A stretch of DNA of 64,000 bases from Pseudomonadota bacterium (GCA_030528565.1 JAUMYP010000002.1:56854-120853); one strand, 5' to 3'. Shown: positions 5,851 through 63,289, numbered from the stretch's first letter. The notes: a model not told the origin generated them from the letters alone. Numbers and translations: made by a program.

Positions 5851-5851
5851 A

Positions 5852-40700: not shown

Positions 40701-40715
40701 TTTCAGCCCCCGCCA

Positions 40716-40746
40716 AAGCGCCGCGCCAGCGGCGCTTTGCTTTTGA
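40716..40746 (+). terminator. rho-independent terminator after the H-NS gene
   Basis: aaagcgccgc-gcca-gcggcgcttt (10-bp stem) followed by gcuuuug. Confidence 0.65.
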
Positions 40747-40754
40747 AAGCCTGT

Positions 40755-41999: not shown

Positions 42000-42108
42000 G
42001 GCAAAAGCATGACATGGATAATCCTGACCGCAAGCATCATTATCATGACTATTTCACACGCCCATCCCGGACAATCTCTAAGATGCGCGGCTCACCGATT
42101 TTGCCTGC

Positions 42109-43218: not shown

Positions 43219-43221
43219 GGG

Positions 43222-45580: not shown

Positions 45581-45635
45581 TTTGCCCCCCTGCCGCTAAA
45601 CCCGGACAATTCGCGCCTGTACCGAAGGAGCCACG

Positions 45636-47264
45636 ATGAACCACATCCAGCCAGAAATCGAACGCGACGTCATGGAATATGACGTTGTGACCGTCGGTGC
45701 AGGGCCCTCCGGCCTTGCCTTTGCCATTCGCCTGAAACAGCTGAACCCTGAGCTTTCGGTGTGCATCATCGAAAAAGGCAGCACCGTCGGCGCGCATATC
45801 CTCTCCGGCGCGGTGATTGAGCCGGAGCCGCTGGATGCGCTCCTGCCCGGCTGGCGCGACAACCCGCCGCCGGTATGCGTGCCGGCGCGCGAGGACGAAT
45901 TCTGGCTGCTGTCCAGAACCGGCCAGCGCAAGCTGCCGCTGCCGCCGGGCATGAACAACCACGGCAACTTCATCGTCTCGCTCGGCGGCCTGTGCGCCTG
46001 GCTGGCGCCGCAGGCCGAAGCCCTGGGGGTGGAAATCTTCCCCGGCTTTGCCGCTGCCGAAACCCTGCACGATGACAGCGGCCGGGTGATTGGCGTGCGC
46101 ATCGGCGACATGGGCGTGGCCAAGGACGGAACCCCCAAGGACAGCTATACCCCCGGCATCGACATCCACGCCAAGGTCACGGTGCTGGCCGAAGGCGCGC
46201 GCGGACACCTCAGCAAACGCCTTATCAAGCGTTTTGGCCTGGATAAAGACAGCGACCCGCAGACTTATTCCATCGGCATCAAAGAACTGTGGCAGGTGGA
46301 CGAATCACGGGTTTCCCCCGGAAAAATCGTGCATACCCTGGGCTGGCCGGCCGACAGCCATATCTATGGCGGCAGCTTCCTGTATCACCTGGAAGGCGGG
46401 CGCATTGCGCTTGGCTATGTCAGCGGGCTGGACTACCGCGACCCGCATTACCGGCCCTGGGAAGCCTTCCAGCAGTGGAAGGCGCATCCGATGATTGCGC
46501 CCTTGCTGGAAGGCGGCAGCATCGTCTCCGCCGGCGCCCGCGCCATCGTCACCGGCGGCTGGCAATCGCTGCCGAAAGTGGAAATGCCGGGCGCACTGCT
46601 GATTGGCGATACCGCTGGCCTGCTCAATGTGCCCAAGGTCAAGGGCACCCACCAGGCAGTCCGCAGCGGCATGCTGGCCGCCGAGCATCTGGCTGCCAAT
46701 GCGCTCTCCAGCACCGGCTTTGATGCGCGGCTGCGCGATTCGGCGGTGATGGCCGAACTCAAGAAAGTGCGCAATATCAAGCCCGGCTTCAAGAAGGGGC
46801 TGTGGTTCGGCATGCTCAATGCCGGCTGGGAAACCGTCACCGGCGGCGCCTCGCCGTGGACGCTGGCGCAGACCGCCGACCACGCCGCGCTGCGCAAGGT
46901 CGGCGAAGCCCCGGCTGTGGACTACGACTATGTCGAGCGCAGCCTGCCGCCGCGCGACCGCCTGCAAGGCGTGTTCTATGCCGCCACCTCGCATGACGAA
47001 GACCAGCCGGTGCATCTGCAGATGCTCGAACCCGACCTGTGCGCCACCCGCTGCCTGGAGGAATACGACAACCCCTGCACCCGCTACTGCCCGGCCTCGG
47101 TCTATGAGATGGTCGATGATGCCAGCCAGCCGCACGGCAAACGCCTGCAAATCAATGCCGCCAACTGCGTGCACTGCAAGACCTGCGACATCAAGGACCC
47201 GTACCAGAACATCAACTGGGTCACTCCCGAGGGCGGCAGCGGGCCGAATTACCAGGGCATGTGA
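45636..47264 (+). CDS. electron transfer flavoprotein-ubiquinone oxidoreductase
   Basis: FAD motif DVVTVGAGPSGL plus C-terminal 4Fe-4S CVHCKTCDIKDP. Confidence 0.93.
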   Translation: MNHIQPEIERDVMEYDVVTVGAGPSGLAFAIRLKQLNPELSVCIIEKGSTVGAHILSGAVIEPEPLDALLPGWRDNPPPVCVPAREDEFWLLSRTGQRKLPLPPGMNNHGNFIVSLGGLCAWLAPQAEALGVEIFPGFAAAETLHDDSGRVIGVRIGDMGVAKDGTPKDSYTPGIDIHAKVTVLAEGARGHLSKRLIKRFGLDKDSDPQTYSIGIKELWQVDESRVSPGKIVHTLGWPADSHIYGGSFLYHLEGGRIALGYVSGLDYRDPHYRPWEAFQQWKAHPMIAPLLEGGSIVSAGARAIVTGGWQSLPKVEMPGALLIGDTAGLLNVPKVKGTHQAVRSGMLAAEHLAANALSSTGFDARLRDSAVMAELKKVRNIKPGFKKGLWFGMLNAGWETVTGGASPWTLAQTADHAALRKVGEAPAVDYDYVERSLPPRDRLQGVFYAATSHDEDQPVHLQMLEPDLCATRCLEEYDNPCTRYCPASVYEMVDDASQPHGKRLQINAANCVHCKTCDIKDPYQNINWVTPEGGSGPNYQGM

Positions 47265-49312
47265 TGGACGCGCAACAGGTGAATTCCGGTGCGCGTGATG
47301 CGGCGTTCCGCCTGCTGCGCGCCGGTTTTCGCCTGCTGCCGCTGTCCGAGCTGCGCCGCGATGCGCTGCGGCAATGGTTCCTGCAACGCTTCCCCGGTAT
47401 CCGCCCGGCCAGCCAGCCGCTGATTATCGGCAGCGCGCCCGGCCAGCGCCGCGCCCTGCAAGCGGCCGGCAGCCGGGCACTCGGCTACCGCGAGGACAGC
47501 CCCCCCGCACTACCCGCCCCCCTGCCAGCGCGGCTGGTGGCGTTCTACCTGCCGCAATTCCACCCGCTGGCCGAAAACGATACCGCCTGGGGCGCGGGCT
47601 ATACCGAATGGCGCGCCGTCAGCCGCGCCCTGCCACAGTTCGAAGGTCATGTGCAGCCGCGCCTGCCCGGCGCACTGGGCTTTTACGACCTGCGCCTGCC
47701 GGATGTGCTGCGCCAGCAGGCGGCGCTGGCCCGGCGTTACGGCATCAGCGCGTTTTGCAGCTATTTCTACTGGTTTCATGGCCGCACCGTGCTGGAAACC
47801 CCGCTGCGGCACTGGCTGGACAATCCGGACATCGACTTTCCGCTTTGCCTGTGCTGGGCCAATGAACCCTGGACGCGCACCTGGGATGGCAGCGCCGAGC
47901 AGGTACTGATTGCCCAGGCGCACGATGCCGAGGACGACCTGGCCTTTATCGCCCATGTGGCCGACTATCTGCGCGATGCGCGCTATCTGCGCGTCGATGG
48001 CAAGCCAGTGTTGTTGGTGTACCGCCCCGGCAAACTTCCCGATGCCCGCGCCACCGCCGGACGCTGGCGCCACTGGTGCCGCGACCACGGCATCGGCGAG
48101 ATTTACCTGGCCTATACCCAATCCTTCGAACGCCCCGACCCGCGCGATATCGGCTTTGATGCGGCGGTGGAGTTTCCGCCCAATCTGGTTGCGGCCACGA
48201 GCTTGAACGCCACCCAGCAGGCACTGAACCCGGCCTATCAGGGCAGCCTGCTGGACTGGCGCGAGCTGCCACCGCATTACCTTGGCAAACCGGCCAGCCC
48301 CTACCCGCTGCATCGCGCGGTGAACTGCGGCTGGGACAACGAACCGCGCCGCCCCGGACATGGACGCACCTGGCTGCATGCCGCCCCGCGCCGCTACCGC
48401 GACTGGCTGCGCGATGCCATCGCGCTATCGCCCCGCCACGGCACTGAGCCACCGCTGCTGTTCATCAATGCCTGGAACGAATGGGGCGAAGGCGCAGTGC
48501 TGGAGCCGGACAGCCGCCTGGGTCATGCCTGGCTCGCCGCCACCGCCGAGGCGCTGCGACCGCCACCGCCCAAGCCCGCCCGCCCCTGCGTGCTGATTCA
48601 CGCCTTCTACCCGGAAGTACTGGCGGAAATCCTCGATGTGCTGGCAAAGAGTGCATTGCAGGCGCGCCTTGTGATTACCACCGTGCCGGAAAAGTCCGCG
48701 GCCATCCGCCGCATGCTGACACAGCGCAGCCTGCAGGCCGAGGTGCATGTTGCCGAAAACCGTGGCCGCGACATCCTGCCGTTCCTGCAGCTTGCCAACC
48801 AACTGCTGGACGAGGGCGAGGACATCGTGCTGAAGCTGCATACCAAACGCTCCACCCATCGCGGTGATGGCGATGCCTGGCGACGCGAATTCACCGATGC
48901 ACTGCTGGGCGAGAACAGCGCCGCCATCCTGGCCGCCTTCGATGCCGACCCCAGGCTCGGCCTGCTCGCTCCGGCCAACCATCTGCAACCGATGCACTAT
49001 TACTGGGGCGCAAACGCGGCCAATGTCGATTACCTCTGCCGCCGCCTCGGGCTTGCCAGCGCCGATACCGAAAACGAACTATTCGCCGCCGGCAGCATGT
49101 ACTGGCTGCGGTTGGAAGCCCTGCGGCCACTGCTGGATGCGCATCTTGAGGAATGGGAGTTCGAGGCCGAGGCCGGACAAGTCGATGGCACCCTCGCCCA
49201 CGCCATCGAACGCATCGTGCTCAAAACCGTTCACGCCGCCGGTTACAGCCACCGCGCCTGGCCCGAGGATGACCAGAGCGACCTGCCCTACCGCTACGCC
49301 CGGCGTGATTGA
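47264..49312 (+). CDS. polysaccharide biosynthesis protein, WbsX-like domain fused to rhamnan-synthesis RgpF domain
   Basis: N-terminal WbsX/GH99-like domain (LPQFHPLAENDTAWGAGYTEWR...NAWNEWGEG) and C-terminal RgpF-like domain. Start GTG 47261 or ATG 47264 overlaps the ETF-QO stop. Confidence 0.7.
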   Translation: MDAQQVNSGARDAAFRLLRAGFRLLPLSELRRDALRQWFLQRFPGIRPASQPLIIGSAPGQRRALQAAGSRALGYREDSPPALPAPLPARLVAFYLPQFHPLAENDTAWGAGYTEWRAVSRALPQFEGHVQPRLPGALGFYDLRLPDVLRQQAALARRYGISAFCSYFYWFHGRTVLETPLRHWLDNPDIDFPLCLCWANEPWTRTWDGSAEQVLIAQAHDAEDDLAFIAHVADYLRDARYLRVDGKPVLLVYRPGKLPDARATAGRWRHWCRDHGIGEIYLAYTQSFERPDPRDIGFDAAVEFPPNLVAATSLNATQQALNPAYQGSLLDWRELPPHYLGKPASPYPLHRAVNCGWDNEPRRPGHGRTWLHAAPRRYRDWLRDAIALSPRHGTEPPLLFINAWNEWGEGAVLEPDSRLGHAWLAATAEALRPPPPKPARPCVLIHAFYPEVLAEILDVLAKSALQARLVITTVPEKSAAIRRMLTQRSLQAEVHVAENRGRDILPFLQLANQLLDEGEDIVLKLHTKRSTHRGDGDAWRREFTDALLGENSAAILAAFDADPRLGLLAPANHLQPMHYYWGANAANVDYLCRRLGLASADTENELFAAGSMYWLRLEALRPLLDAHLEEWEFEAEAGQVDGTLAHAIERIVLKTVHAAGYSHRAWPEDDQSDLPYRYARRD

Positions 49313-49417
49313 GCCACTACAGAAAGCCCCCGACATAGCCCCTAGCGTCTGCTTCTGCCAAGGCACCGGCTCTCCAAAACCGCAAATAATGGCAAACCGT
49401 GCCCCTCATGCCTTGCC

Positions 49418-49750
49418 TTATTTTGGGCAAAAAACCTCGTGCAGCGTCTGCAAAAGCCGCAGCGCCTCCGCGCTCGCTATCGCGTAGTGGATGTGCTTGC
49501 CCTCTCGGCGGGTGCTGACCAGTCCTTCGTTGCGCAGCACGGCCAGCTGTTGCGACAGGGTCGGCTGGCGAATCTGCAACGCCGCCTCCAGCGCCCCGAC
49601 CGTGGACTCGCCTTGCGAGAGCTGGCACAGCAGCATCAGCCGGTCGTGATTGGCCAATGCTTTCAGCAAGACCAGGGCTGCCTCAGCCCCGGCGCGCATC
49701 TGCTCGGGTGCAATCTGGGCGGCTGCTGGGGATGGCAGGGCGTGCGTCAT
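49418..49750 (-). CDS. ArsR/SmtB family transcriptional regulator
   Basis: HTH region ...LANHDRLMLLCQLSQGESTVGALEAAL... Confidence 0.85.
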   Translation of the reverse strand: MTHALPSPAAAQIAPEQMRAGAEAALVLLKALANHDRLMLLCQLSQGESTVGALEAALQIRQPTLSQQLAVLRNEGLVSTRREGKHIHYAIASAEALRLLQTLHEVFCPK

Positions 49751-49776
49751 GGCATTGCAAACAATTTACTTGAAAA

Positions 49777-49785
49777 TATAATATA
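49777..49785. promoter_or_regulatory. perfect palindrome TATAATATA in the divergent ArsR/AhpD-like promoter region
   Basis: Lies in an AT-rich 67-nt divergent intergenic region. Candidate ArsR-type operator overlapping a -10 element. Confidence 0.35.
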
Positions 49786-49817
49786 AAATCATGTATTCAA
49801 TCACAAGCGAGGTTCAC

Positions 49818-50180
49818 ATGAGCAAGAGCTACAAAGAAATCATCGGCCACACCTCCTCCTGGCTGGCGCCGCTGCGCCGCGACATCCCCGCCACCACCCA
49901 GGGCTTCTCGGCGCTGGCACAGGCAGCCATTTCCGATGGCGTGCTGGACAAGAAAACCAAGGAGCTGATTGCCATGGCGCTGGCCGTGGCCTCGCGCTGC
50001 GACCCCTGCCTTGGCTATCACGCCCAGGCGCTGGTAAAACTCGGTTGCAGCCGCGCCGAACTGGAAGAAATGCTCTCGGTATGCGTGTACATGGGCGGCG
50101 GCCCCTCGCTGATGTATGCTGCCAACGCACTGGCCGCCTATGAAGAATTCGGCGGCGAAAAAGCCACTGCCAACAACTGA
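49818..50180 (+). CDS. carboxymuconolactone decarboxylase family protein (AhpD-like, CxxC)
   Basis: RCDPCLGYH, i.e. a C-x-x-C-x-x-x-H AhpD-core motif. Confidence 0.8.
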   Translation: MSKSYKEIIGHTSSWLAPLRRDIPATTQGFSALAQAAISDGVLDKKTKELIAMALAVASRCDPCLGYHAQALVKLGCSRAELEEMLSVCVYMGGGPSLMYAANALAAYEEFGGEKATANN

Positions 50181-50196
50181 TTCGGAGGTATTCATC

Positions 50197-50391
50197 ATGA
50201 AGTTCAATGTCGGCGGCATCGACCGCCTGCTGCGCATCGTGCTCGGTCTGGCGCTGATTGGCCTGACCCTCACCGGCCATATCGGCGTCTGGGGCTGGCT
50301 TGGCCTGTTGCCACTCATCACCGGCCTGGTACGCTTCTGCCCGGCCTATCTGCCGTTCGGCCTCAGCACCTGCAAGCACAAGCCGAAGTAA
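50197..50391 (+). CDS. DUF2892 (YgaP-like) small membrane protein
   Basis: 64 aa, MKFNVGGIDRLLRIVLGLALIGL..., two TM helices. Confidence 0.65.
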   Translation: MKFNVGGIDRLLRIVLGLALIGLTLTGHIGVWGWLGLLPLITGLVRFCPAYLPFGLSTCKHKPK

Positions 50392-50433
50392 AACCGGGTA
50401 TGGGGAAACACCTCCCCTGTCCCCTGATATGAC

Positions 50434-50466
50434 AAACGCCGGGCACACCCGGCGTTTGTTGTTTGT
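50434..50466 (+). terminator. rho-independent terminator after the DUF2892 gene
   Basis: aaacgccggg-caca-cccggcguuu followed by guuguuugu. Confidence 0.65.
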
Positions 50467-50515
50467 CCCAAGCGCAAAGGCGCACGGCTTGCATGCGCCT
50501 TGCCGCATCAAGCCC

Positions 50516-51142
50516 TCACAGCAGCGGCACGCCGGTTTTTTCGCGCACTTCGGCCTCGCTCACGCCTTCGGCCAGTTCCACCAGCACAAGGCCCGCTGCG
50601 CTGACATCAAATACACCAAGGTCGGTGATGATGCGGTTGACCACGCCCACACCGGTCAGCGGCAGGGTGCATTCGGGCAGGATTTTCGGGCTGCCACTCT
50701 TGGTGGTGTGCTCCATCAGCACCACCACGCGCTTGACCCCGGCTACCAAGTCCATCGCCCCGCCCATGCCCTTGACCATCTTGCCCGGCACCATCCAGTT
50801 GGCCAGGTCGCCCTTGCCGGTAACTTCCATTGCGCCGAGGATGGCAAGGTCGATATGCCCGCCGCGAATCATCGCAAAGCTGTCATGGCTGCCGAAATAG
50901 CTGGCACCGGCCACCGCGGTGACGGTCTGCTTGCCGGCATTGATAAGGTCGGCATCGACTTCCGCCTCGGTCGGGAACGGGCCGATGCCGAGCAGGCCGT
51001 TTTCGCTTTGCAGCCAGACTTCCATGCCTGCGGGGATGTAATTGGCCACCAGGGTCGGCAGGCCGATGCCAAGGTTGACATAGGCGCCGTCGCTCAATTC
51101 TTGGGCGGCGCGTTGCGCCATCTGCTCACGCGTCCAGGCCAT
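50516..51142 (-). CDS. 3-oxoacid CoA-transferase subunit B
   Basis: [30 protein letters not shown]... The 367-aa track ORF is a frame artefact extending into scoA. Confidence 0.88.
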
Positions 51143-51143
51143 C

Positions 51144-51866
51144 TCAGTTACCTCCTTCGCTGCGCACGGTGCGCTGTTCGATGCGTTTTTCCGGGCTGGC
51201 ATTGACCACGATGCGGTCAACATAAATGCCGGGCAGATGTACCTGGTCGGGGTCGAGCTGGCCGGTTTCCACCAGTTCCTCCACTTCCGCGATGCACACC
51301 TCGCCCGCCATGGCACAGGCCGGGTTGAAGTTGCGCGCGGTCTTGCGGAACACGAGGTTCCCGGCCTTGTCGGCCTTCCAGGCCTTGACCAGCGACACAT
51401 CGGCACGCAGCGCGGTTTCCAGCACATAGTGCTTGCCGTCGAATTCGCGGGTTTCCTTGCCCTCGGCCACCACGGTGCCATAGCCGGTGGCGGTGAAGAA
51501 CGCCGGGATGCCAGCGCCACCTGCGCGCAGGCGCTCGGCCAGGGTGCCCTGCGGGTTGAATTCCAGCTCCAGCTCGCCAGAGAGGAACTGGCGCTCGAAC
51601 TCCTTGTTCTCGCCCACATAGGAGGAAATCATTTTCCTGATTTGCCGGGTTTCCAGCAGCAGGCCAAGGCCAAAGCCATCGACCCCGGCGTTATTGGAAA
51701 TCGCGGTCAGCCCTTTCACGCCGGAATCGCGCAGCGCCGCAATCAGGGCTTCGGGAATGCCGCACAGGCCAAACCCGCCCACGGCGAGCGTTTGCCCATC
51801 GGCCACCACATCGGCCAAGGCAGCCTTGGCATCGGGATACAGCTTGCTTCGACTCATCGGGAACAC
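51144..51866 (-). CDS. 3-oxoacid CoA-transferase subunit A
   Basis: ...[19 protein letters not shown]..., CoA-transferase family I. Confidence 0.88.
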
Positions 51867-52232
51867 CTTGCTGGGAACTGCGCCAAGTTTAGCCGCCCAG
51901 CGGCAGAAACTGCACTGTACGTTTGTATTTGGAGCTTTGGAATGGCGCCATTACGGCCTCCCCTGCAGCAAGAGCCACGGGGAAGCGCTTGCTTTGAAGC
52001 AAGCGTGGATATTGTTGCGTCTTCAACATCGAAATATGCGCCCGGCAACGCACTCACTTTCTTTTGTGGACAAAATGACGCGTCTTGCGCCGCAAAATTC
52101 CTCGTGCAGAACAGACCGGAAAGTTAAGAACAAAAGCACCGAGTCCTTATCTTCTCCAAGCTAGCGGCAGCTGGAAGTACATTGCCATCAGCACAAATAA
52201 ACGTCTCTAACAATTCCAATCAGGACGCAGCT

Positions 52233-53645
52233 TCAACTGCGCCCGTAAACATCTTCCAGGCGTTCAATATCGTCTTCGCCAAGATAACTGCCGGACTGCA
52301 CTTCAATCAGCTCCACAGCTGTCTGCGTGGTATTGCGCAGGCGGTGGATGCTGCCCTGCGGGATATAGGTACTCTGGTTTTCGTGCAATTCGAATACCTG
52401 CTCATCGCAGGTGACCTCGGCCACGCCAGACACCACAATCCAGTGCTCGGCACGGTGCTGGTGGCGTTGCAGGCTGAGCGAGGCACCGGGTTTGACCACG
52501 ATGCGTTTGACCTGGAAACGCTCGCCCATTGCCAGCGAGTCATAGCTGCCCCAGGGACGGTATACCTTGCGGTGGTGCAGATGCTCGGTGCGGCCCTCGG
52601 CTTTCAGCGTGTCCACCAGTTTTTTCACATCCTGCACGCGCTCACGATGCGCCACCAGCACCGCATCGGCAGTATCGACCACAATCAAATCTTCCACGCC
52701 CAGCGCCGCCAACAGGCGGTCATCCGCCGCTTGCAGATAGGTATTGCGGCTATCAATGGCAATGGTATCGCCCAGTTGCACATTGCCCATCGGGTCGCGT
52801 GTGGCGACGCTCCACAGCGATGACCAGGAGCCGACATCACTCCAGCCGCAGTCCACCGGCACCACTGCGGCATTCGCGGCGCGCTCCATCACCGCATAGT
52901 CGATGGAGTCATCCGGGCTTTGCGCAAAGGCGTCCTTATCGACCCGGATAAAGTCCAGGTCACGCCGGGCAAGCTGCCATGCCTTGCGCGCCGCCGCCGC
53001 AATCGCCGGGGCATGGGTTTGCAAGGCGGCCAGATAGCTGTCGGCACGGAACAGGAACATCCCCGAGTTCCAGAGGTAATCGCCACTTTCAAGATATTGC
53101 CTGGCGCGCTCGGCATCGGGTTTTTCCACAAACGCCGCGATACGCTGCACGCCATCCCCCAGTGTTTCGCCACTGCGGATATAGCCATAGCCGGTTTCCG
53201 GGTATTCCGGGCGGATACCGAAAGTCACCAGCAGCCCTTGCTGCGCCTTGGGCAAGCCCGCCGCCACTGCTGCATGAAAGGCAGCCTCGTTGCGAATCAG
53301 ATGGTCGGCCGGCAACACCAGCAGTACACCCTCTGCATCGTCTGCCAGCACCTGCAAGGCGGCCAGAGCGATGGCCGGGGCAGTATTGCGCGCCACCGGC
53401 TCCAGCAGGATGCCGCTGCTTCCAAGGCCGATTTGCTGCAACTGCTCGCCGACCATGAAGCGGTGATCCTCGGCACAGACAGTCAGCACCGGGCGGGCAT
53501 CGGGCAGGCCCGCCACGCGCCGGGCGGTGGCCTGGAACAGGGTGTCATCGCCGGTCAACGCAAGGAACTGCTTGGGGGTATTGCTGCGCGAGCGCGGCCA
53601 AAGACGGGTGCCACTGCCGCCGCTCAAAATGACAGGATGAATCAT
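52233..53645 (-). CDS. manC: mannose-1-phosphate guanylyltransferase/mannose-6-phosphate isomerase (bifunctional, XanB/CpsB type)
   Basis: MIHPVILSGGSGTRLWP... plus a C-terminal cupin PMI domain; 470 aa. Confidence 0.9.
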   Translation of the reverse strand: MIHPVILSGGSGTRLWPRSRSNTPKQFLALTGDDTLFQATARRVAGLPDARPVLTVCAEDHRFMVGEQLQQIGLGSSGILLEPVARNTAPAIALAALQVLADDAEGVLLVLPADHLIRNEAAFHAAVAAGLPKAQQGLLVTFGIRPEYPETGYGYIRSGETLGDGVQRIAAFVEKPDAERARQYLESGDYLWNSGMFLFRADSYLAALQTHAPAIAAAARKAWQLARRDLDFIRVDKDAFAQSPDDSIDYAVMERAANAAVVPVDCGWSDVGSWSSLWSVATRDPMGNVQLGDTIAIDSRNTYLQAADDRLLAALGVEDLIVVDTADAVLVAHRERVQDVKKLVDTLKAEGRTEHLHHRKVYRPWGSYDSLAMGERFQVKRIVVKPGASLSLQRHQHRAEHWIVVSGVAEVTCDEQVFELHENQSTYIPQGSIHRLRNTTQTAVELIEVQSGSYLGEDDIERLEDVYGRS

Positions 53646-53679
53646 GTGTGATGATGCGTGCTCCAAGATACCGGCAAGA

Positions 53680-55584
53680 TTAGCCCAATGAAGCGATATC
53701 TGGCGGGCTATCTGCCTCAATACTCGCCAACAAGTCCAGCACGGCTTGAACCGCTTGTGAAGGCGAAAGCCGGTCTGCGGCAATCCTCAGCTCAGGGGAC
53801 TGCGGAGGTTCATAAGGCGAATCAATACCAGTGAAATTCGGCAGCTGTCCAGCGCGCGCCCTGGCATATAGCCCTTTCACATCGCGCGCCTCAGCGACTG
53901 CAAGCGGCACATCCACATGGACTTCCAGAAAGTCACCCGGCACAAACAGCTCACGTGCCATCTGTCGTTCGGCACGGAACGGTGAAATAAAGCTCACCAA
54001 TACCACCAATCCAGCATCGACCATCAGCTTTGCCACTTCAGCCACACGGCGGATGTTCTCCACCCGATCGGTATCGGTAAACCCCAAGTCGCGGTTCAGG
54101 CCATGCCGGATATTGTCCCCATCCAGCAAAATCGTATGGATACCGCGTGTATTGAGTTGAACCTCCACCTGATCGGCAATGGTCGATTTGCCTGCGCCAG
54201 ACAGGCCGGTAAACCAGATGCAGCGTGCTGCATGGCCTTTTATCCGGCTACGTGCGGCACGGCTCACCTGCAATGCCTGCCGGTGCAAATGACTCGCACC
54301 GCGCAACGGATGGTCAATCACTCCGGCAGCCACCGTGGCATTGGTAACGCGATCAATCAGAATGAACGCGCCCAGCTCGCGGTTATCGACAAATGCGGTA
54401 AAAGCCAGCGCACGATCCAGTTGCAGATTGCATATGCCAATCTCGTTGAGCTCGAGCTGCCTGGCTGCCAACGGCGCCAGTATTTCCGAGTCCAGCCGGT
54501 GCTTGAGGGTAGTCACACGCGCCAGCGTGCTGGCCGTACCTAACTGCAGCTGGTAGCTGCGACCAGGTATCAAAGCATTCTCATGCATCCACAGCAGGTG
54601 TGCAGCAAACTGGTCAGCTACCTCAACCGCTGTGCCTTCGCTGGCCGCAAGCACATCCCCTCGAGCCACATCGCATTCCCGATCCAGCAATACCGTTACA
54701 GCTTCACCCGCCTGTGCACTCATGACTTCGCCACGCGCAGTCAGTACCTGGCGCACCTGCGCCCGCTCCCCGCCCGGGAAAATTCGCACACTATCACCGC
54801 AGGCAAGACAGCCAGAAACAAGGTTGCCGCAATACCCACGAAAATCCTGGTGTGGACGGTTGACCCACTGCACCGGCAAAATCATGGCTGCAGAGTTGAG
54901 CTGTGCATCCTTGCCCTGTGCACTTTCCAGAAGCTGCAGCAAACTCGCCCCCTGATACCAGGGCATTCGCTGCGAGGGCTCGACCACGTTATCGCCAGCC
55001 AGCGCCGATAACGGGACCGCCTGCACCGAGGCAATCCCGATCCGCTGTGCAAGCTGTGCATACGCTCCGGCAATATCATCAAAGACTTCCTGTGCATAAC
55101 CCACGCAGTCCATCTTGTTGACTGCCAGCACTACCTGACGCACGCCGAACAACGACACAATCAGACTGTGACGGCGAGTCTGCGGCAGTAACCCCTTGCG
55201 GGCGTCCACCAACACCACCGCCAAATCTGCAGTGGATGCCCCCGTCGCCATGTTGCGGGTGTACTGCACATGCCCCGGACAATCGGCAACGATAAAGCGG
55301 CGTGAAGGCGTGGCGAAATAACGGTACGCCACATCAATGGTAATACCCTGGCTGCGCTCATCCTCCAGCCCATCCAGCAACAGGGCGTAATCCAGCACCT
55401 GACCCTGCGTACCCATGCGCGCACTGTCAGAACGCAATGCCAGCAACTGATCATCCTTGAGTGCACCGCAATCATGCAGCAAGCGGCCAATCAGGGTGCT
55501 TTTGCCATCATCCACGCTGCCGCAGGTGATAAAGCGCAACAGCCCAGCCGTCTGCCGGGCACCTGACTCATCCGAGAATACCAT
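53680..55584 (-). CDS. cysNC: bifunctional sulfate adenylyltransferase subunit 1 / adenylyl-sulfate kinase (CysN-CysC fusion, NodQ-like)
   Basis: N-terminal GTPase ([18 protein letters not shown]) plus C-terminal APS kinase P-loop (GLSGAGKST). 634 aa. Confidence 0.9.
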
Positions 55585-56483
55585 CAGAAATAGCCCTCGC
55601 GTTTTTTCTTCTCCATGGATGCTGACGGGTCATGGTCAATCACGCGCCCCTGGCGTTCCGAGTTTCGCGCCATGCGCATTTCCTCAATCACCTCATCAAG
55701 CGTGGCTGCCGTGGAATCAATCGCACCCGTCAACGGATAACAACCCAAGCTGCGAAAGCGAACCTGCCGCTGCTGCCAGTACTCTCCGGGACGTAGTTGC
55801 AAACGCTCATCATCACGCAAGATCAAATGACCATCTCGCTCCACCACTTCACGCCAGCGCGCAAAATACAGTTCGGGTACTTCAATTGATTCCCGCCGGA
55901 TGTATTCCCACACATCCAGCTCGGTCCAGTTGGACAACGGAAACACACGCACACGCTCACCGGCATGAATGCGGGTATTGAACAAACGCCACAACTCCGG
56001 GCGCTGTCGGCGCGGCTCCCAGTGATGCTGATGATTACGGAAGGAGAAAATCCGCTCCTTGGCACGAGAAGCTTCTTCATCACGCCTCGCCCCACCAATG
56101 ACCGCATCAAAGCCATGCGCATCCAGTACCTGACGCAATGCCTGGGTTTTCATGACATCGGTATGTACGGTTGCGCCGTGGGTCAGCGGCCCGATGCCGG
56201 CTGCCACACCTTCCGGGTTGCGGTATATGTGCAAATTCAAGCCAGTCTGTGCTGCACGCCGGTCGCGCAAGGCAATCATTTCCCGGAATTTCCAGCCAGT
56301 ATCCACATGCAGCAACGGGATTGTCGGACGTGCAGGCGCAAAAGCCTTGAGCAAAAGGTGCAACAACACCGCACTGTCTTTACCGATGGAATACAACAGC
56401 ACCGGATTGCAGAAGCAGGCCGCCACTTCCCGCAAGACAAACAGGCTTTCGTCCTCCAGCGCGTCCAGATAGTGGCGGCTCAC
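55584..56483 (-). CDS. cysD: sulfate adenylyltransferase subunit 2
   Basis: [14 protein letters not shown]... PAPS-reductase-like fold. Zero-gap junction with rmlD, 1-nt overlap with cysNC. Confidence 0.9.
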
Positions 56484-57383
56484 CTAGCCCGATCCGTGCC
56501 GTGTCATAACCAAATGATTCAGCGTAGTGGCAAGCCCGCTGCGCCAATCGGGCAGAGTCAGCGCAAAGTCATGCTCAAGGCTGCTCGCATCCAGCACCGA
56601 ATAGGCCGGGCGTTTGGCCGGGGTCGGGAAATCTGCCGTAGTGATGGGTAACACCGGCGTTTTTCTGGCCAGCAAACCCTGTGCGTGTGCGCCTTCGATA
56701 ATGGCCTTGGCAAAGCCATGCCAGGTGGTGCTGCCGGTCGGGGTCAGATGCCAGGTGCCGCTGGGGCGTTCAGGTTTTGCAAGGATTTGCGCAGTGACAT
56801 CGGCAATCAGCGCGGCAGGCGTGGGCGTGCCCTGCTGGTCGGCGACCACGCGCAGCGCATCGCGCTCGGCGGCCAGGCGCAGCATGGTGAGCAGGAAATT
56901 CTTGCCGTGATGCGCATATACCCAGGCGGTGCGCAGGATGGCGTGCTGGCAGCGGCTATCGCGGATGGCTTCCTCGCCAGCCAGCTTGCTTTCCCCGTAA
57001 GCCCCCAGTGGCGCGGTGGCATCTTCTGGCCGGTACGGGCGCTGCCCCTGTCCGTCGAAAACGTAGTCGGTGGAGTAATGCAGCAAATAAGCGTCCTGTG
57101 CCTTACAGGTTTCGGCCAGCACACGCGGGCTTTCGGCATTGACCAGGAACGCCAGGTCGCGCTCGCTTTCGGCCTTGTCCACCGCCGTGTAGGCAGCGGC
57201 ATTCACCACCACATCGGGTGCGGTTGCCTGCACCAAGGCACGCAGGGTTTCGGGCGCGGCAAAGTCCGCCACTACGCCATGCTCACCGGCACGGGTGGCG
57301 ACAATCAGCTCCCCCAAACCGGCCAGCGCGCGTCGGCATTCGGTGCCGACCTGGCCATTGCCTCCCAGGAGCAGAATTTTCAT
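56484..57383 (-). CDS. rmlD: dTDP-4-dehydrorhamnose reductase
   Basis: [15 protein letters not shown]...YSTDYVFDG... Confidence 0.9.
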   Translation of the reverse strand: MKILLLGGNGQVGTECRRALAGLGELIVATRAGEHGVVADFAAPETLRALVQATAPDVVVNAAAYTAVDKAESERDLAFLVNAESPRVLAETCKAQDAYLLHYSTDYVFDGQGQRPYRPEDATAPLGAYGESKLAGEEAIRDSRCQHAILRTAWVYAHHGKNFLLTMLRLAAERDALRVVADQQGTPTPAALIADVTAQILAKPERPSGTWHLTPTGSTTWHGFAKAIIEGAHAQGLLARKTPVLPITTADFPTPAKRPAYSVLDASSLEHDFALTLPDWRSGLATTLNHLVMTRHGSG

Positions 57384-57937
57384 GGCTGATATACCGGCAG
57401 GCGCTCGGCGGGAATATCGGCCAGGAACGGCGCAGTGCTATCTTTGGCCGAAAGCTGCGGCGCCGACAGCGGCCAGTCAATCGCAAGCTGGCCGTCATTC
57501 CAGGCGATATTGGCATCGGCAGCAGCATCGTAGGTTTCCGTGCACAAATAGGTAAACAGCGCACGCTCGCTCAGCACCACAAAGCCATGCGCAAAGCCCT
57601 CGGGTATCCAGAAGTGCCGCTTGTTTTCTGCACTCAATAGCGCCGCGACCCACTGTCCGAAGGTCGGCGAGCCGCGGCGGATATCCACCGCCACGTCCCA
57701 CACCTCGCCTTCCAGCACCGAAACCAGCTTGCCCTGCGGCTTGGGCCACTGGTAATGCAGGCCGCGCAGCACACCCCTGGCCGACTGCGAAACATTGCCC
57801 TGCTTGAAATTCAGCGGCAGGCCATGCCCGGCCAGCTTGTCGGCATTGAAGGACTCATAGAAAAACCCGCGCTCATCGGCAAATACCCGTGGCTCGATGA
57901 TGCGGCAGCCGGGCAACTCGGTTTCAATGATTTTCAC
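57380..57937 (-). CDS. rmlC: dTDP-4-dehydrorhamnose 3,5-epimerase
   Basis: ...[12 protein letters not shown]...RGLHYQ... Confidence 0.92.
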
Positions 57938-58839
57938 GGTACATAACCTCGCTCCGGCAGGCTCATCAGGTAGCGGCCATAACCGTTTTTGAGCAGCGGC
58001 CTGGCGAGTTTTTCCAGTTGTGCTGCATCAATCCAGCCACTCATGAAGGCGATTTCTTCCGGGCAACACACTCTCAGCCCCTGACGCGCCTCGATGGTTT
58101 CAATGTAGTTCGCCGCTTCCAGCAGGGACTGGTGCGTTCCGGTATCCAGCCAGGCATAGCCGCGTCCCAGTCGCTCCAGATGCAGCGCGCCTTCCTGCAG
58201 ATAGATTTTATTAAGGTCGGTGATTTCCAGCTCGCCGCGTGGCGAAGGTTTGAGATTGGCAGCCAATTCCGGCGCGCGGCCATCGTAGAAATACAGGCCG
58301 GTCACCGCGTAATTGGAGCGCGGATTCTGCGGCTTTTCTTCCAGGCCAATCACCCGGCCATCGGCATCGAATTCGGCCACGCCATAACGCTCCGGGTCCT
58401 GCACCCAGTAGCCGAACACCGTCGCCCCCTCACTGCGGGCGTCGGCACGCTTCAGCATCGCAGTCAGGCCCGGGCCGTGGAAGATGTTGTCGCCCAGCAC
58501 CAGACAGCTCGGTGCGCCACCCAGAAACTCCGCACCAATAGTGAACGCCTGCGCCAGGCCATCAGGGCTGGGCTGCACCGCATATTCAAACTTCATCCCC
58601 CATTGCGCGCCATCGCCCAGCAGGCTCTTGAACAGCGCCTGCTCGTGCGGGGTGTTGATAATCAGCACTTCACGAATCCCGGCCAGCATCAGCACGCTAA
58701 GCGGGTAATAAATCATCGGTTTGTCATACACCGGCAGCAGCTGCTTGCTGATGCCCTGGGTGATGGGATAGAGCCGGGTGCCGGAGCCACCGGCCAGAAT
58801 GATGCCTTTGCGCTGCATAGTGCGATATTCCTCTGTCAT
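57934..58839 (-). CDS. rmlA: glucose-1-phosphate thymidylyltransferase
   Basis: [20 protein letters not shown]...; the probable start is at 58818. Confidence 0.93.
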
Positions 58840-58929
58840 TTATCTGCGCCCTCACTGGCGCAGCTACTTGATGTTTGCAACTCCTGCCCGCCCTTCCTTG
58901 GCCGGGCGCTTGATGGTGAAACAAATGTG

Positions 58930-59991
58930 TCAGTTCTCCCCATCTCGCCCCATGCGCTCCAGACGGTAGCTGCCATCCAGCACCCGCTGCACCCACGCCT
59001 GGTTGTCCAGATACCAGCGCACGGTATCGGCAATGCCCTGTTCAAAGGTATGCGCAGGCTCCCAGCCCAGCTCACGCTTGAGCTTGGAAGCATCAATCGC
59101 ATAACGGCGGTCATGGCCGGGACGGTCGCGCACATAGGTGATTTGCGCCTGATACTTCTGGCCGTCGGCGCGCGGGCGCAGCTCGTCCAGCAGGGCGCAG
59201 ATGGTCATCACCACCTCGATGTTCTGGCGCTCGGCATTGCCGCCGACATTGTAGGTTTCGCCCACCTGCCCCTTGGCAAGCACAGTGCGGATGGCCGCGC
59301 AGTGGTCGCCCACATACAGCCAGTCGCGCACATTCTTGCCATCGCCATAAATCGGCAGCGGCTCACCGGCCAGCGCCCGGGCGATGATGAGCGGGATGAG
59401 CTTCTCCGGAAACTGGAACGGGCCGTAATTATTGGAGCAATTGGTGGTCAGCACCGGCAGGCCATAGGTATGGTGGAAGGCGCGCACCAGATGGTCAGAC
59501 GCAGCCTTGGAGGCCGAGTATGGCGAATTCGGCGCATAGGCGGTCTCTTCGGTAAACAGGCCAGTCTCGCCCAGCGAGCCATACACTTCATCGGTGGACA
59601 CATGCAGGAAGCGGAACGCCGCCTGTCCGGCCTCATCCAGACCGCGCCAGTAATCGCGCGTGGCCTCCAGCAAGCCCAGCGTCCCCACCACATTGGTGTG
59701 CACAAACGCCGCCGGGCCATCAATGGAACGGTCCACATGGCTTTCGGCAGCGAAATTAATCACCGCATCCGGGCGGTGCCCGGCAAGCAAGCGCGCCACC
59801 AGCTCGCGGTCACCGATATCGCCCTTGACGAATACATGATTGGCATTGTCGGCAAGCTCGGCCAGGGTATCGAGATTGCCCGCATAGGTCAGCAAATCCA
59901 GATTCACCACCTTGACCCCGGCCTTGACCGCCTCCAGCACGAAATTGCCGCCAATGAAGCCGGCGCCGCCGGTCACCAACCATGTTTGCAT
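58930..59991 (-). CDS. rmlB: dTDP-glucose 4,6-dehydratase
   Basis: [18 protein letters not shown]..., an SDR with the YxxxK motif. Confidence 0.93.
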
Positions 59992-60059
59992 TGCATGTTT
60001 TCCATATTCACAAAAAAACTTTGATTATAAGCACTCAAGCAACCCTACTCCAAGCGACA

Positions 60060-62330
60060 TCAGAAACGTGGCGGAAACGCGAGCATAAACTCCTGCTGCA
60101 AATGCAAGGATAGATTTGGATTGTAGAAGGGATCGTAGTTCAGAGAATCCCCATAACGAGCCCTCATAAACTCAATCTCCCCAGCAAATCTAGCTTGCTT
60201 TTCAGGATTATCATCACGCCCACGCGAGGCGGACTCATGATGATACAGCTCAGCAAATGGAGTCCATATATTCCTGTAGCCCGCATCCCTCAGTCGCAAG
60301 CAAAAATCCACATCATTGAAAGCCACTGCCAATTGCTCATCCAGCCCGGAAACAGCTTCAAAAGCGCTGCGACTTACAACGAGACATGCGCCCGTAACTA
60401 TACTCACCACCTGCGTCAATCGCCCCCGACAAAAATAACCATCAAAACCACGCGACGCACAGCTGTAAATATGACCTGCAATTCCCCCCAACCCACTCAC
60501 AACCCCTGCATGCTGAATGGTGTCATCCGGATAATAAAGCATCGCCCCAACTGCACCCACACCCGGCTTTAACGCATGCGAAACCATTTCATCAAGCCAC
60601 CCCTCAGAAATCACCTCGATATCATTATTAATAAGCCCTAAAACCTCACCTCTCGCAATCGATGCAGCATAATTATTGATTGCCGAATAATTAAATTCAG
60701 CATCATAGGGAACCACCCTAACCCTAAAGTCATCCTGTATATAGCTAAAGTATTCTAACGTCTCAGACTCCACAGAGCCATTATCAACAATGATAATATC
60801 AAAATTTTCATATCTTGTTTTTTCAATAATACTGCCAACACAAACCTTGAGCAGATCCACCTTATCACGGGTCGGAATAATAAGGCTAACCAAAGGCTTC
60901 CGTTCCGGCAAAATTATTTCCGACCTGATATAGCCATCATTTCCACCTACCACATTCGCCCTTACACCAATCCTTTCAAAATGCTGACTAACTGCACTTT
61001 CCGCCGCAACAGCTGCATAGCTCTTTTCATGAACCCCCATTGAAGTCGAACCTGGAATGGTTCTCCAGTGATAAAGAACCTTAGGAATATGAATAATCTG
61101 TGACGATTTAATTTTCTCAATACAGCGCAATGCCAAATCCCAATCCTGAGAACCTTCCATCCCCACTCTAAAACCACCGACTTCACGAACCAGGCCAGCC
61201 TCATAGACACCCAGATGAGAAATGCAATTCTGACCAAGAAACAGCTCGTAATTCCAGTCCGTTTTGAAATAAGGACCAAACCTAACCCCATCTTCGTCAA
61301 TCTTATCCTCATCACTGTAAATTACTTTTGCATCTGGATTCTTATCCAATGCCTCGGCCACACATAACAATGCCTCGGGATGCAACTCATCATCATGATC
61401 AAGCAAAACCAAAAAATCCCCCCGGGCAATTTCCAGCGCAGAATTTGACGCTTCAGATATATGCCCATTTTTATTGCGGGAAATGTATTTTACCCGACCA
61501 TCCTTACTTGAATATTCCTCCAGAACCTTCAACACATGCCTCTCGGTAGAGGCATCATCCGCAACACAAATCTCCCAATTCTCATAAACCTGCGCCAAGA
61601 CACTATCCAGCGCCTTCCTGAACCATTTTTCCGGAGGATTATAAACAGGCATAATTACAGAAAAAAGAGGCAGCCCTGACAACCCCCTTTTGCGCTCCTC
61701 CAGCTCCCGAGAGCGCCACTCAACCGGAGGATCGTAAATTCTTACCCATCCCTGATAACTTGAGCAAACATTCGAGAATTTACTCAAATAACTTACCCTC
61801 AACTCCGCGACTGCCTGCCGTACACCTTGCCGCCTTGCCACAAGAAAGAGACTTCTTATGAAGGCGTACCAAACACTACCAGCCTGCCCTCCCCTACTTT
61901 CACAAACAGAGCTTATCATCCCCCAATAAGCAGCCACCCTAGGAATACGACGAATACAGGCATCCCCAAGCGAGAAAAACGCCTTACGAACAGTAGGATC
62001 AAACCTCAATGACTTTGCAGGCTTTATCAAGACAATAATGCAGTCAATCTTATCCTCATCCTGACGATACCAAAGAGGCACTATGTTTATTTCACCAAAC
62101 CCCCCTCCATAGTCAGGGTATATACAAGGTCCTACAATCCCTCCAAGCTCCCCAGTCAGCTGAATTTGCAAGTGATACCACCCCTGCTCCCAATCACCCT
62201 CCCCTTCTTTACAAATCAGGAATTGAGGATCATTGTCCACTGATTGCCACCGGCTCCACCTATCTCCTTCCCCACCCTCTCGACGCAGACCCAACAAAGG
62301 ATTAAAACCGATTTTTATTTTCTTCATCAT
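60060..62330 (-). CDS. multidomain glycosyltransferase: unknown about 230-aa N-domain plus two tandem GT2 (GT-A) domains; low-GC
   Basis: GT2 domain 1: FSVIMPVYNPPEKWFRKALDSVLAQ...LLDHDDE. GT2 domain 2: VSLIIPTRDK...IIIVDNGS...LINNDIEV. The N-terminal 230 aa have no recognisable motifs. GC is clearly below the flanks. Confidence 0.75.
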   Translation of the reverse strand: MMKKIKIGFNPLLGLRREGGEGDRWSRWQSVDNDPQFLICKEGEGDWEQGWYHLQIQLTGELGGIVGPCIYPDYGGGFGEINIVPLWYRQDEDKIDCIIVLIKPAKSLRFDPTVRKAFFSLGDACIRRIPRVAAYWGMISSVCESRGGQAGSVWYAFIRSLFLVARRQGVRQAVAELRVSYLSKFSNVCSSYQGWVRIYDPPVEWRSRELEERKRGLSGLPLFSVIMPVYNPPEKWFRKALDSVLAQVYENWEICVADDASTERHVLKVLEEYSSKDGRVKYISRNKNGHISEASNSALEIARGDFLVLLDHDDELHPEALLCVAEALDKNPDAKVIYSDEDKIDEDGVRFGPYFKTDWNYELFLGQNCISHLGVYEAGLVREVGGFRVGMEGSQDWDLALRCIEKIKSSQIIHIPKVLYHWRTIPGSTSMGVHEKSYAAVAAESAVSQHFERIGVRANVVGGNDGYIRSEIILPERKPLVSLIIPTRDKVDLLKVCVGSIIEKTRYENFDIIIVDNGSVESETLEYFSYIQDDFRVRVVPYDAEFNYSAINNYAASIARGEVLGLINNDIEVISEGWLDEMVSHALKPGVGAVGAMLYYPDDTIQHAGVVSGLGGIAGHIYSCASRGFDGYFCRGRLTQVVSIVTGACLVVSRSAFEAVSGLDEQLAVAFNDVDFCLRLRDAGYRNIWTPFAELYHHESASRGRDDNPEKQARFAGEIEFMRARYGDSLNYDPFYNPNLSLHLQQEFMLAFPPRF

Positions 62331-62542
62331 AAATCACATCCAGGATAAATCTTCCAAGGCTTAACTAAATATAGATATAAAATATTCAAAGCCCCGACAA
62401 AGGCCCGTTCTTCTCCATTCAGACAACACCCTACTTCTTAGCGCGCAGATGCAGCCCATGATCAATAGCCTCACTCTCCCGAGCTTTAGTCTGTAGAATA
62501 CTACTCCCTACAGTCTGTGTTCTCCCTAAGGTAGCCCTCCAG

Positions 62543-63289
62543 ATGAGAATTCTTGTTGCATACAAGCGGGTCATCGACTCCGATGTCCGTGTACAGGTCA
62601 AGCCGGATAACAGCGGCGTAGTCAGTGAAGGCGTCAAGCTCTCGGCCAACCCGTTTGACGATATCGCCCTGGAAGAAGCCCTGCGCCTGCGCGACAAGGG
62701 CATTGCCACAGAAGTGATTGTCGCCACCATCGCCCCGTCCGATGCCCAGCCACATCTGCGCAATGGCCTGGCCATGGGCGCCAACCGCGCCTTGCACGTG
62801 GTGTCCGACACTCCGGTACAACCACTGACCGCCGCCCGCGTACTGCTGAAGCTGGTTGAAAAAGAGCAGCCCGACATCGTACTGATGGGCAAGCAGGCGA
62901 TTGACGATGACGCAAGCCAGACCGGGCAAATGCTAGCCACCCTGTGGCAGCGCCCGCAGGCCACCTTTGCCAGCCAGGTGGAAGTCGCTGATGGCAAGGC
63001 CACCGTGGTGCGCGAGGTCGATGCCGGCCTTGAAACGCTGGAAGTGGACCTGCCGGCGGTCATCACCACCGACCTGCGCCTCAACAAGCCGCGTTTCATC
63101 AAGCTGCCGGACATCATGAAAGCCAAGAGCAAGCCGCTGGAAACCATCGCCCTGGCCGAGCTTGGCGTGGCCAGCGCCGACACCCTGAAAACCACCCACT
63201 ACGCCCCGCCCGCGCAGCGCAGCCGCGGCGTGATGGTCAAAGACGCCGCAGAACTTGTCGCCAAACTCAAAGAAAAAGGGCTGCTGTAA
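62543..63289 (+). CDS. etfB: electron transfer flavoprotein subunit beta
   Basis: MRILVAYKRVIDSDVRVQVKPD... Confidence 0.93.
   Translation: MRILVAYKRVIDSDVRVQVKPDNSGVVSEGVKLSANPFDDIALEEALRLRDKGIATEVIVATIAPSDAQPHLRNGLAMGANRALHVVSDTPVQPLTAARVLLKLVEKEQPDIVLMGKQAIDDDASQTGQMLATLWQRPQATFASQVEVADGKATVVREVDAGLETLEVDLPAVITTDLRLNKPRFIKLPDIMKAKSKPLETIALAELGVASADTLKTTHYAPPAQRSRGVMVKDAAELVAKLKEKGLL

Follow-up and report, generated by a model that had tools for sequence, protein, structure and literature searches.

The interval between ETF-QO and etfBA in a Pseudomonadota bacterium as a probable orthologue of the Xanthomonas/Lysobacter lipopolysaccharide-precursor region with three lineage-specific modules

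Gene content of the interval between ETF-QO and etfBA

We analyzed 64,000 nucleotides (nt) of DNA from a Pseudomonadota bacterium (GCA_030528565.1, JAUMYP010000002.1:56854-120853), hereafter the window, and focused on the genes lying between ETF-QO, which encodes the electron-transfer flavoprotein (ETF)-ubiquinone oxidoreductase, and etfBA. An initial annotation, made by a model from the sequence alone, had described a mosaic polysaccharide locus inserted between these genes. Our comparisons indicate that the interval is very probably the orthologue of the conserved lipopolysaccharide (LPS)-precursor region of Xanthomonas and Lysobacter carrying three additional lineage-specific modules, and thus a variant of a known locus rather than a new island. 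Gene identities were assigned by Pfam and NCBIfam scans of open reading frames (ORFs) in the window. Window proteins were then mapped onto 80 ETF-QO loci from different species, 65 of which had enough downstream DNA to be usable; all counts below are taken over these 65. The ETF-QO matches all come from Lysobacteraceae or Rhodanobacteraceae, at no more than 84% amino acid identity. Loci are labeled Lnnn, with L002 being Solilutibacter tolerans, L007 the Lysobacter sp. metagenome-assembled genome (MAG) DAHUXS010000018.1, L041 a Luteimonas MAG, and L082, L083 and L085 the strains NML95-0200, NML08-0793 and NML91-0268, each named Lysobacteraceae bacterium. These three clinical-collection strains are the closest genomes. 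By blastn, NML95-0200 matches window positions 52233-64000 at about 90% nucleotide identity, NML91-0268 matches 37253-49315 and 49414-51918 at 87-91%, and NML08-0793 matches 37229-49323 at 83%. The Logan contig SRR24915846 (L081, 4.6 kb) is 100% identical to 59690-64000 and ends 89 nt past etfA.

The left flank, ETF-QO (45636-47264, plus strand; Pfam Fer4_ETF_QO 2e-43 and ETFQO_UQ-bd 3e-35), is 76-84% identical at the amino acid level to its Lysobacteraceae orthologues. Its stop codon overlaps the ATG (TGATG) of a gene encoding a fusion of WbsX and RgpF domains (47264-49312, plus; Glyco_tran_WbsX 3.5e-122, and the C-terminal half only of RgpF, 4e-40). Next come a BigR-like repressor of the ArsR/SmtB family (49418-49750, minus; HTH_5 1.7e-12), an AhpD/CMD-family protein with a CxxC motif (49818-50180, plus; CMD 8e-22 and TIGR00778 ahpD_dom, the start of which was assigned from an alignment to its NML91-0268 counterpart) and a YgaP-like small membrane protein of the DUF2892 type (50197-50391, plus; YgaP-like_TM 1.6e-22). 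The minus strand then carries the two 3-oxoacid CoA-transferase subunit genes, scoB (subunit B, Xanthomonas lpsJ; 50516-51142; CoA_trans 7.7e-49), which shares 76-90% amino acid identity with the syntenic copies of 52 relatives, Xanthomonas among them, and scoA (subunit A, Xanthomonas lpsI; 51144-51857; CoA_trans 2.8e-82), which is 83-94% identical to its syntenic copies. Beyond scoA lies a non-coding junction (51918-52232) that has no blastn match in NML91-0268 or NML95-0200 and contains terminator-like hairpins at 51985-52006 (plus) and 52091-52077 (minus).

All remaining genes up to the right flank are on the minus strand. They are manC/xanB, encoding GDP-mannose pyrophosphorylase/mannose-6-phosphate isomerase (52233-53645; Pfam match and TIGR01479 at 685 bits, above cutoff; 470 aa, as in NML95-0200); cysNC, the large subunit of ATP sulfurylase fused to adenosine 5'-phosphosulfate (APS) kinase (53680-55584; NF004035 at 914 bits, above cutoff; Pfam GTP_EFTU and APS_kinase); cysD, the small subunit of ATP sulfurylase (55584-56483; NF009214 at 484 bits, above cutoff); the dTDP-L-rhamnose pathway genes rmlDCAB (56484-59991), comprising rmlD (56484-57383; RmlD_sub_bind 2e-105), rmlC (57380-57937; dTDP_sugar_isom 7e-69), rmlA (57934-58818; NTP_transferase 7e-76) and rmlB (58930-59991; GDP_Man_Dehyd/Epimerase 3e-96); and a 756-aa tandem GT2 glycosyltransferase (GT; 60060-62330) with two copies of Glycos_transf_2. 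From the GT to manC these genes overlap or are separated by gaps of 0-111 nt. An AT-rich divergent intergenic region (62331-62542), kept in NML95-0200, separates the GT gene from etfB (62543-63289, plus; ETF 2.7e-38) and etfA (63289-64000, plus; ETF and ETF_alpha), which is cut by the window end and is present as a full 312-aa gene on the Logan contig. Promoter and terminator scans of the region gave counts at background, the notable features being a divergent promoter-like pair between the ArsR and CMD genes and the hairpins after manC. A plus-strand ORF at 58018-60024 that matches no Pfam family was rejected as antisense noise.

The named genes and strands of the initial annotation were borne out by these scans, as was its reading of the interval as a mosaic of glycan-precursor and unrelated genes. 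Its estimate of about 15 kb agrees with the 15,278 nt measured from the ETF-QO stop to the etfB start; the end it had placed at 62430 was arbitrary, the true end being the etfB start at 62543. The heterogeneous GC content it noted was also measured, with a span of 0.43-0.67 over the whole interval and, by gene, values of 0.458 for the GT, 0.56-0.58 for cysD/cysNC, 0.60-0.64 for the rml genes and manC, and about 0.67 for the fusion. The GT looks foreign by composition.

A conserved backbone interrupted by variable modules

The genes between ETF-QO and etfBA recur across the family. Downstream of ETF-QO, scoBA is found in 52 of the usable loci, etfB in 37 (36 of them in collinear orientation), manC in 30 and rmlA in 12. 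The distance from ETF-QO to etfB in the 36 collinear loci is 1.6-9.1 kb, with a median of 5.7 kb, and is never zero. The notion that the ETF genes are normally adjacent was thus ruled out, the minimal spacing of 1.6 kb in relatives being filled by scoBA to give the minimal form ETF-QO - scoBA - etfBA. The family-wide order runs from mlaEFD-aux through ETF-QO, a variable segment, scoBA and various combinations of manC, rmlDCAB and cysDNC to etfBA. In blastn alignments, S. tolerans (L002) is collinear with the window over ETF-QO, scoBA, manC, rmlDCA, rmlB and etfBA, and the gaps correspond to exactly three modules. At 47264-50516, S. tolerans has a GT1-family gene instead; at 53680-56483, the position of cysNC-cysD, its manC and rmlD are about 29 nt apart; and at about 60000-62530, the position of the GT, its rmlB and etfB are 124 nt apart. 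The spacing between rmlB and etfB is similarly short in L025 and L030 (176-216 nt). Absence of the backbone was looked for in close and distant relatives, and the backbone was found present instead. The comparison across relatives that had been proposed with the initial annotation therefore returned a conserved backbone with three lineage-specific modules, and the family-wide synteny means that the interval is not an insertion.

In Xanthomonas, the LPS cluster between etfA and metB varies strongly and has a low GC content (PMC2585010), and upstream of etfA lies a conserved LPS region of about 11 kb containing rmlABCD, xanAB and the 3-oxoacid CoA-transferase genes lpsIJ (PMC2585010, PMC2238763). 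The rmlABCD-xanAB-lpsIJ region is kept in all xanthomonads and in Stenotrophomonas (PMC2238763). The window interval occupies the same site, between mlaEFD/ETF-QO and etfBA, as the lpsIJ-xanAB-rmlABCD locus of X. campestris, as that locus is described in papers citing the original work (Köplin 1992, 1993; Steinmann 1997; via PMC2238763 and PMC2585010), and it shares orthologous scoA/scoB (lpsI/lpsJ), manC (xanB) and rmlDCAB, with rmlB facing etfB. The scoA and scoB products share 78-90% identity with those of the syntenic genes in Xanthomonas. The window differs in lacking xanA (tblastn with Xanthomonas xanA against the window gave a best E value of 3.9), in having manC on the rml strand, and in carrying cysD-cysNC between manC and rmlD, the tandem-GT2 gene between rmlB and etfB, and a BigR-like module after the ETF-QO-proximal transferase. 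Xanthomonas loci in our set read ETF-QO - (fusion) - scoBA - xanA - manC - rmlDCAB. At this position xanA occurs in 15 loci, from Xanthomonas, Stenotrophomonas and some Pseudoxanthomonas and other genera, and is not found in most Lysobacter-type loci.

The initial annotation had likened the interval to the O-antigen hot spots that flank etfA in Xanthomonas. The link to an etfA-flanked LPS region is real. However, the homology is to the conserved upstream locus, the hypervariable site being the one between etfA and metB; the interval is the orthologue of the precursor locus, and the hot spot in question is found across etfBA from it. Compared with the hypervariable etfA-metB locus of Xanthomonas and Stenotrophomonas, the window interval is on the opposite side of etfBA, lacks wzm/wzt and has a conserved backbone, while its GT belongs to a family resident at that locus in relatives and has the atypical GC that is typical there. 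The orthology of scoAB with lpsIJ also means that a link of these two genes to polysaccharide cannot be set aside, as the initial annotation had done, since lpsI/lpsJ of Xanthomonas are reported as required for LPS, based on one X. campestris mutant study known here through citing papers (PMC2585010, PMC2238763).

Across genera the variation falls into three recurrent slots, namely after ETF-QO, from scoA to rml, and from rmlB to etfB. Within the window the GC content is strongly atypical in the GT only, and the block from manC to etfA shares 90% nucleotide identity with NML95-0200. Breakpoints within the clade occur at 49.3, 51.9 and 52.2 kb. The latter two bound the scoA/manC junction, where NML91-0268 is syntenic up to 51918 and NML95-0200 from 52233 on. 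Past scoA, NML91-0268 has a two-component system and a TonB receptor; in NML95-0200, creD lies beyond manC; and in NML08-0793 the fusion leads straight into iscR/suf. The clade thus rearranges often here, and the window keeps the family-typical order.

A low-GC tandem glycosyltransferase heading the minus-strand genes

The most distinctive of the three modules is the GT gene at 60060-62330, which is low in GC and under selection, encodes a GT of the polymerase type and has been displaced from the canonical O-antigen site. Its homologues are many, at about 50-60% identity, and the named ones are almost all from Lysobacteraceae; many are about 750 aa long, some reach about 1300 aa with extra domains, and some are fused to Sulfotransfer_3 (P0031, P0068). 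An AlphaFold2 (AF2) model built with 38 sequences has a mean confidence (pLDDT) of 87.5 and predicts a beta-sandwich at residues 1-129, a helical linker at 131-215 and two GT-A domains at about 220-455 and at 480-730. The motifs DHDD (311-314) and NND (568-570) are invariant in the 38 homologues, and no Pfam family matched the first 220 residues. The best matches in both sequence and fold are two-domain polymerases, the Escherichia coli K4 chondroitin polymerase K4CP (2z86) and the Pasteurella heparosan synthase 2 PmHS2 (8vh7), which likewise carry tandem GT-A domains in one chain. Identity to these is just 13-16%, however, the window protein has the additional N-terminal beta-sandwich and helical linker, and its context points to an O-antigen rather than a glycosaminoglycan capsule. 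Two catalytic domains in a single cytoplasmic GT would be expected of a polymerase for O-antigens exported by ATP-binding cassette (ABC) transporters, and the window protein has two GT2 domains and, in the predicted model, two GT-A folds.

Relative to NML95-0200, with which per-gene GC, dS and dN/dS (the ratio of nonsynonymous to synonymous substitution rates) were compared, the GT is 95% identical in amino acids with a dN/dS of 0.10 and a dS of 0.20, and neighboring genes have dN/dS values of 0.05-0.13. Its GC content is 0.45-0.46 in both genomes. The GT is not decaying and is under purifying selection.

Homologues of the GT are found with ABC-exporter genes at the opposite flank of etfBA. 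The cluster of Lysobacter koreensis reads metB - wzm - wzt (with Wzt_C) - methyltransferase - GT homologue. In the O-antigen cluster on the etfA side of NML08-0793 (L083:12465-16169), a 58% identical homologue adjoins wzt, whose product has ABC_tran and a weak Wzt_C; this cluster also holds a GT1 gene, genes of the GDP-heptose pathway, a clear sulfotransferase gene (262 aa) and another that is weakly sulfotransferase-like (286 aa). A 45% identical homologue lies downstream of etfA in the Luteimonas MAG. These contexts mark the GT family as typical of ABC-transporter-dependent O-antigen clusters at the canonical site between etfA and metB. The window and NML95-0200 instead have the gene on the opposite side of etfBA, where it heads the rml operon and is not encoded with wzm/wzt as its homologues are in NML08-0793 and L. 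koreensis. The GT would most likely polymerize a two-linkage, probably rhamnose-containing, O-polysaccharide on undecaprenyl pyrophosphate at the cytoplasmic face, with ABC export encoded elsewhere.

cysD-cysNC within the precursor genes

The second module, cysD-cysNC, abuts rmlD and manC on the same strand, the junctions ranging from an overlap to gaps of up to 34 nt. Its product is 3'-phosphoadenosine 5'-phosphosulfate (PAPS), given the CysC (APS kinase) domain, so that with this placement one minus-strand unit can supply dTDP-L-rhamnose, GDP-mannose and PAPS. As in NodPQ- and RaxPQ-type PAPS supply, CysD and a CysN-CysC fusion are clustered with genes for surface or secreted products; the window differs from those systems in having no sulfotransferase, and cysD-cysNC may just be a housekeeping pair for assimilation. 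The scanned window genes gave no sulfotransferase domain or homologue. Elsewhere, cysDNC occurs in this interval in five Lysobacter-type loci at different positions, with other precursor genes in four of them (L007, L010, L038, L074) and without rml or manC in L057; Rhodanobacter carries it immediately upstream of ETF-QO. This distribution fits a housekeeping pair that is merely resident in the neighborhood. The locus in L007 also has, between cysD and rmlD, a low-GC (0.51) ORF (L007:16936-18915, plus; start probably near residue 76) that combines Sulfotransfer_2 with Wzt_C, a domain architecture pointing to a terminator or reader of O-antigen chains with sulfating activity. L055 carries a distant homologue (L055:18466-19632).

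The slot after ETF-QO

The WbsX-RgpF fusion occurs widely in Lysobacterales under the annotations "GH99-like domain-containing" or "lipopolysaccharide biosynthesis protein", and a literature search found no experimental work on it. Its AF2 model (pLDDT 84.8) predicts a GH99-like (WbsX) TIM barrel followed at the C-terminus by a GT-A-like domain equivalent to the C-terminal half of the RgpF profile; in Foldseek the model matched the GH99 endo-alpha-mannosidase 4ad0 (E 6e-9) and gave weak GT-A hits. The protein thus resembles WbsX and the streptococcal rhamnan synthesis protein RgpF in its Pfam matches and predicted folds, and it differs from RgpF in covering just profile positions 270-503 and in being fused to the GH99-like barrel. 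The fusion follows ETF-QO in 13 relatives, directly in most, with two Rhodanobacter copies 2-3 kb further on; they include Xanthomonas prunicola, Stenotrophomonas, Pseudoxanthomonas, Vulcaniibacterium and Rhodanobacter. The copies in NML strains are 85-88% identical. In other relatives the slot is occupied by a GT1 (L002, L007), by another protein containing RgpF (X. vasicola, L075) or by a reprolysin-like protease. The latter is a large metalloprotease, mostly with FG-GAP repeats and recurring in several genera, which follows ETF-QO in L010, L021, L053 and L058 and is also seen after etfA in L036 and L049.

The ArsR-type regulator scored 102.6 bits against the NCBIfam BigR model, below the 155-bit cutoff, and it faces the AhpD-like gene across predicted divergent promoter-like sites at 49755-49806. 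In comparison with the sulfide/sulfite-responsive BigR operon, the regulator is below the equivalog cutoff and its neighbors are AhpD-like and YgaP-like genes, not Blh/persulfide dioxygenase. Among the fetched loci, only NML91-0268 has this ArsR/CMD/YgaP trio in the interval. The trio is a clade-specific passenger with no evident role in glycan synthesis. In NML91-0268, an 842-aa UvrD-like helicase with a Top1 zinc ribbon (L085:12363-14891) lies between the fusion and the ArsR module and has no equivalent in the window.

Export genes and the etfA-metB side

As the initial annotation had stated, no wzm, wzt, wzx or wzy was found in the window genes scanned with Pfam, namely those of the interval and its flanks and the larger ORFs outside the run resembling a division and cell wall (dcw) cluster; tblastn with the Wzt of a relative hit only mlaF in the window. 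Looking for an exporter upstream of ETF-QO in the window and after etfA in NML95-0200, as had been suggested, likewise yielded no wzm/wzt. Because relatives encode wzm/wzt on the etfA/metB side, absence of the exporter is expected on the upstream side of etfBA. In other genera the stretch past etfA varies, with glycan genes in L015, L021, L041, L046 and L078 and the reprolysin-like protease in L036 and L049. The window metB (248-1441; TIGR02080 at 568 bits) is 62 kb away from etfA, and the gene after it is homoserine-dehydrogenase-like rather than wzm. The canonical etfA-metB site appears to be rearranged in this clade. The tail of the Logan contig past etfA has no copy in the window and no match to the insertion sequence (IS) element found after etfA in NML95-0200, and there may be a repeat where the contig breaks.

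Interpretation of the locus

We interpret the interval as an ancestral backbone of scoBA (lpsIJ), manC (xanB), rmlDCAB and divergent etfBA, to which three modules would have been added. After ETF-QO, the putative translationally coupled gene for a GH99-like and RgpF-type transferase would represent an old, sporadically retained resident of the slot, followed by the clade-specific BigR-like ArsR/AhpD/YgaP module, possibly for sulfur or redox stress. The pair cysD-cysNC would have been placed between manC and rmlD, and the low-GC tandem-GT2 gene, probably bifunctional, would have come to head the minus-strand unit between rmlB and etfB. The region is then very probably the well-known LPS-precursor block of the family, with the true variable O-antigen site beyond the window. 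Several points weigh against parts of this interpretation. It is the spacing of the genes that suggests transcription from the GT through rml and cys to manC as one minus-strand unit, and for the GT, with its putative sugar specificity, NCBIfam gave sub-threshold hits only. The window contains no exporter, initiating transferase of the WecA or WbaP type, ligase or chain terminator, and the pathway as seen is incomplete. In NML95-0200, etfA is followed at once by an IS5-type transposase (DDE_Tnp_1/DUF4096, L082:7190-8002), at a position occupied by glycan genes in other members of the family, and then by ykuD, DUF3297, xerC, DUF484 and dapF. The LPS role of scoAB, reported for Xanthomonas from the one mutant study cited above, is carried over here by analogy, and the position of scoAB between ETF-QO and etfBA fits plain 3-oxoacid catabolism equally well.

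That the whole 15 kb was acquired horizontally as a glycan island between ETF-QO and etfBA would account for the range of GC content across the interval and for its length, which at 15.3 kb exceeds that in any of the 36 collinear relatives. As a whole this is already refuted by synteny, for the backbone genes are syntenic in many genera at 58-94% protein identity, and clearly foreign composition is confined to the GT. No integrase or transposase was found in 45-64 kb, and there is no tRNA gene in the interval, the sole tRNA gene of the window lying 15 kb upstream; searches for repeats flanking the interval or the GT returned chance-level short matches only. An island origin is hardly credible on this evidence. 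The GT might alternatively be a stranded remnant of a dismantled etfA-metB cluster that takes part in no exported polymer, the lineage being rough or having a different glycan. Its detachment from wzm/wzt, the IS element and housekeeping genes after etfA in NML95-0200, the distance between metB and etfA in the window with no wzm following metB, and the frequent rearrangement of the clade at this site are all compatible with such a history. We nevertheless consider it improbable, because the ORF is intact at 756 aa, the catalytic motifs are kept, the gene heads the rml operon, and its dN/dS of 0.10 is accompanied by a dS of 0.2 that is similar to that of housekeeping neighbors.

A different question is why cysD-cysNC is embedded among the precursor genes. 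PAPS might be the sulfate donor for the O-polysaccharide or for the end of its chain, in which case the locus would supply the precursors of a sulfated glycan. The tight packing with rmlD and manC and the recurrence of cysDNC in five Lysobacter-type loci speak for this, as do the Sulfotransfer_2-Wzt_C ORF of L007 with its L055 homologue, the one or two sulfotransferases beside wzt and the GT homologue in NML08-0793, and the GT homologues fused to Sulfotransfer_3. Yet no sulfotransferase is detectable in the window, and cysDNC is also the ordinary enzyme of sulfate assimilation, whose placement in L057 and Rhodanobacter suggests that its position may reflect synteny only; we regard sulfation as possible and, on present evidence, somewhat unlikely. 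A more speculative scenario, in which we place less confidence, is that O-antigen assembly has moved in part upstream of etfBA and that PAPS supply was built into the operon for a sulfated O-polysaccharide or a chain-terminating residue, with sulfate acting as a non-reducing-end signal for a Wzt-type carbohydrate-binding domain, a role hinted at by the Sulfotransfer_2-Wzt_C ORF beside cysD in L007. The recurrence of genes for PAPS synthesis and for sulfotransferase/Wzt_C proteins in or near the block is a testable hint of sulfated O-antigens in some Lysobacteraceae.

Other features of the window

The remaining window genes, as judged by Pfam for the larger ORFs outside the dcw-like run, are of housekeeping type or have no match. 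At the window start, a minus-strand metB operon comprises the homoserine-dehydrogenase-like gene, which runs off the window, metB itself and an alpha/beta-hydrolase-like ORF, likely a homoserine acyltransferase. This ORF is preceded by an S-adenosylmethionine (SAM) riboswitch (RF00162; 2202-2308, minus; 89 bits). Other genes include prfC, pyrF, a phosphate transporter, rsmI, rpoD, a lipid A acyltransferase, proS, an H-NS-like gene, thrE and the mlaEFD-type transporter. A run from ftsZ looks like the dcw cluster, with ftsZ scanned and the remainder suggested by ORF sizes and order; an RNase P RNA (RF00010; 26419-26760, minus; 319 bits) lies between rsmI and this run, and a tRNA-Met (CAT) gene (30903-30978, minus) is just downstream of rpoD. 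The segments 4911-5852 and 7626-8282 have a weak coding signal, and the ORFs tried there (5852-6706) had no Pfam match.

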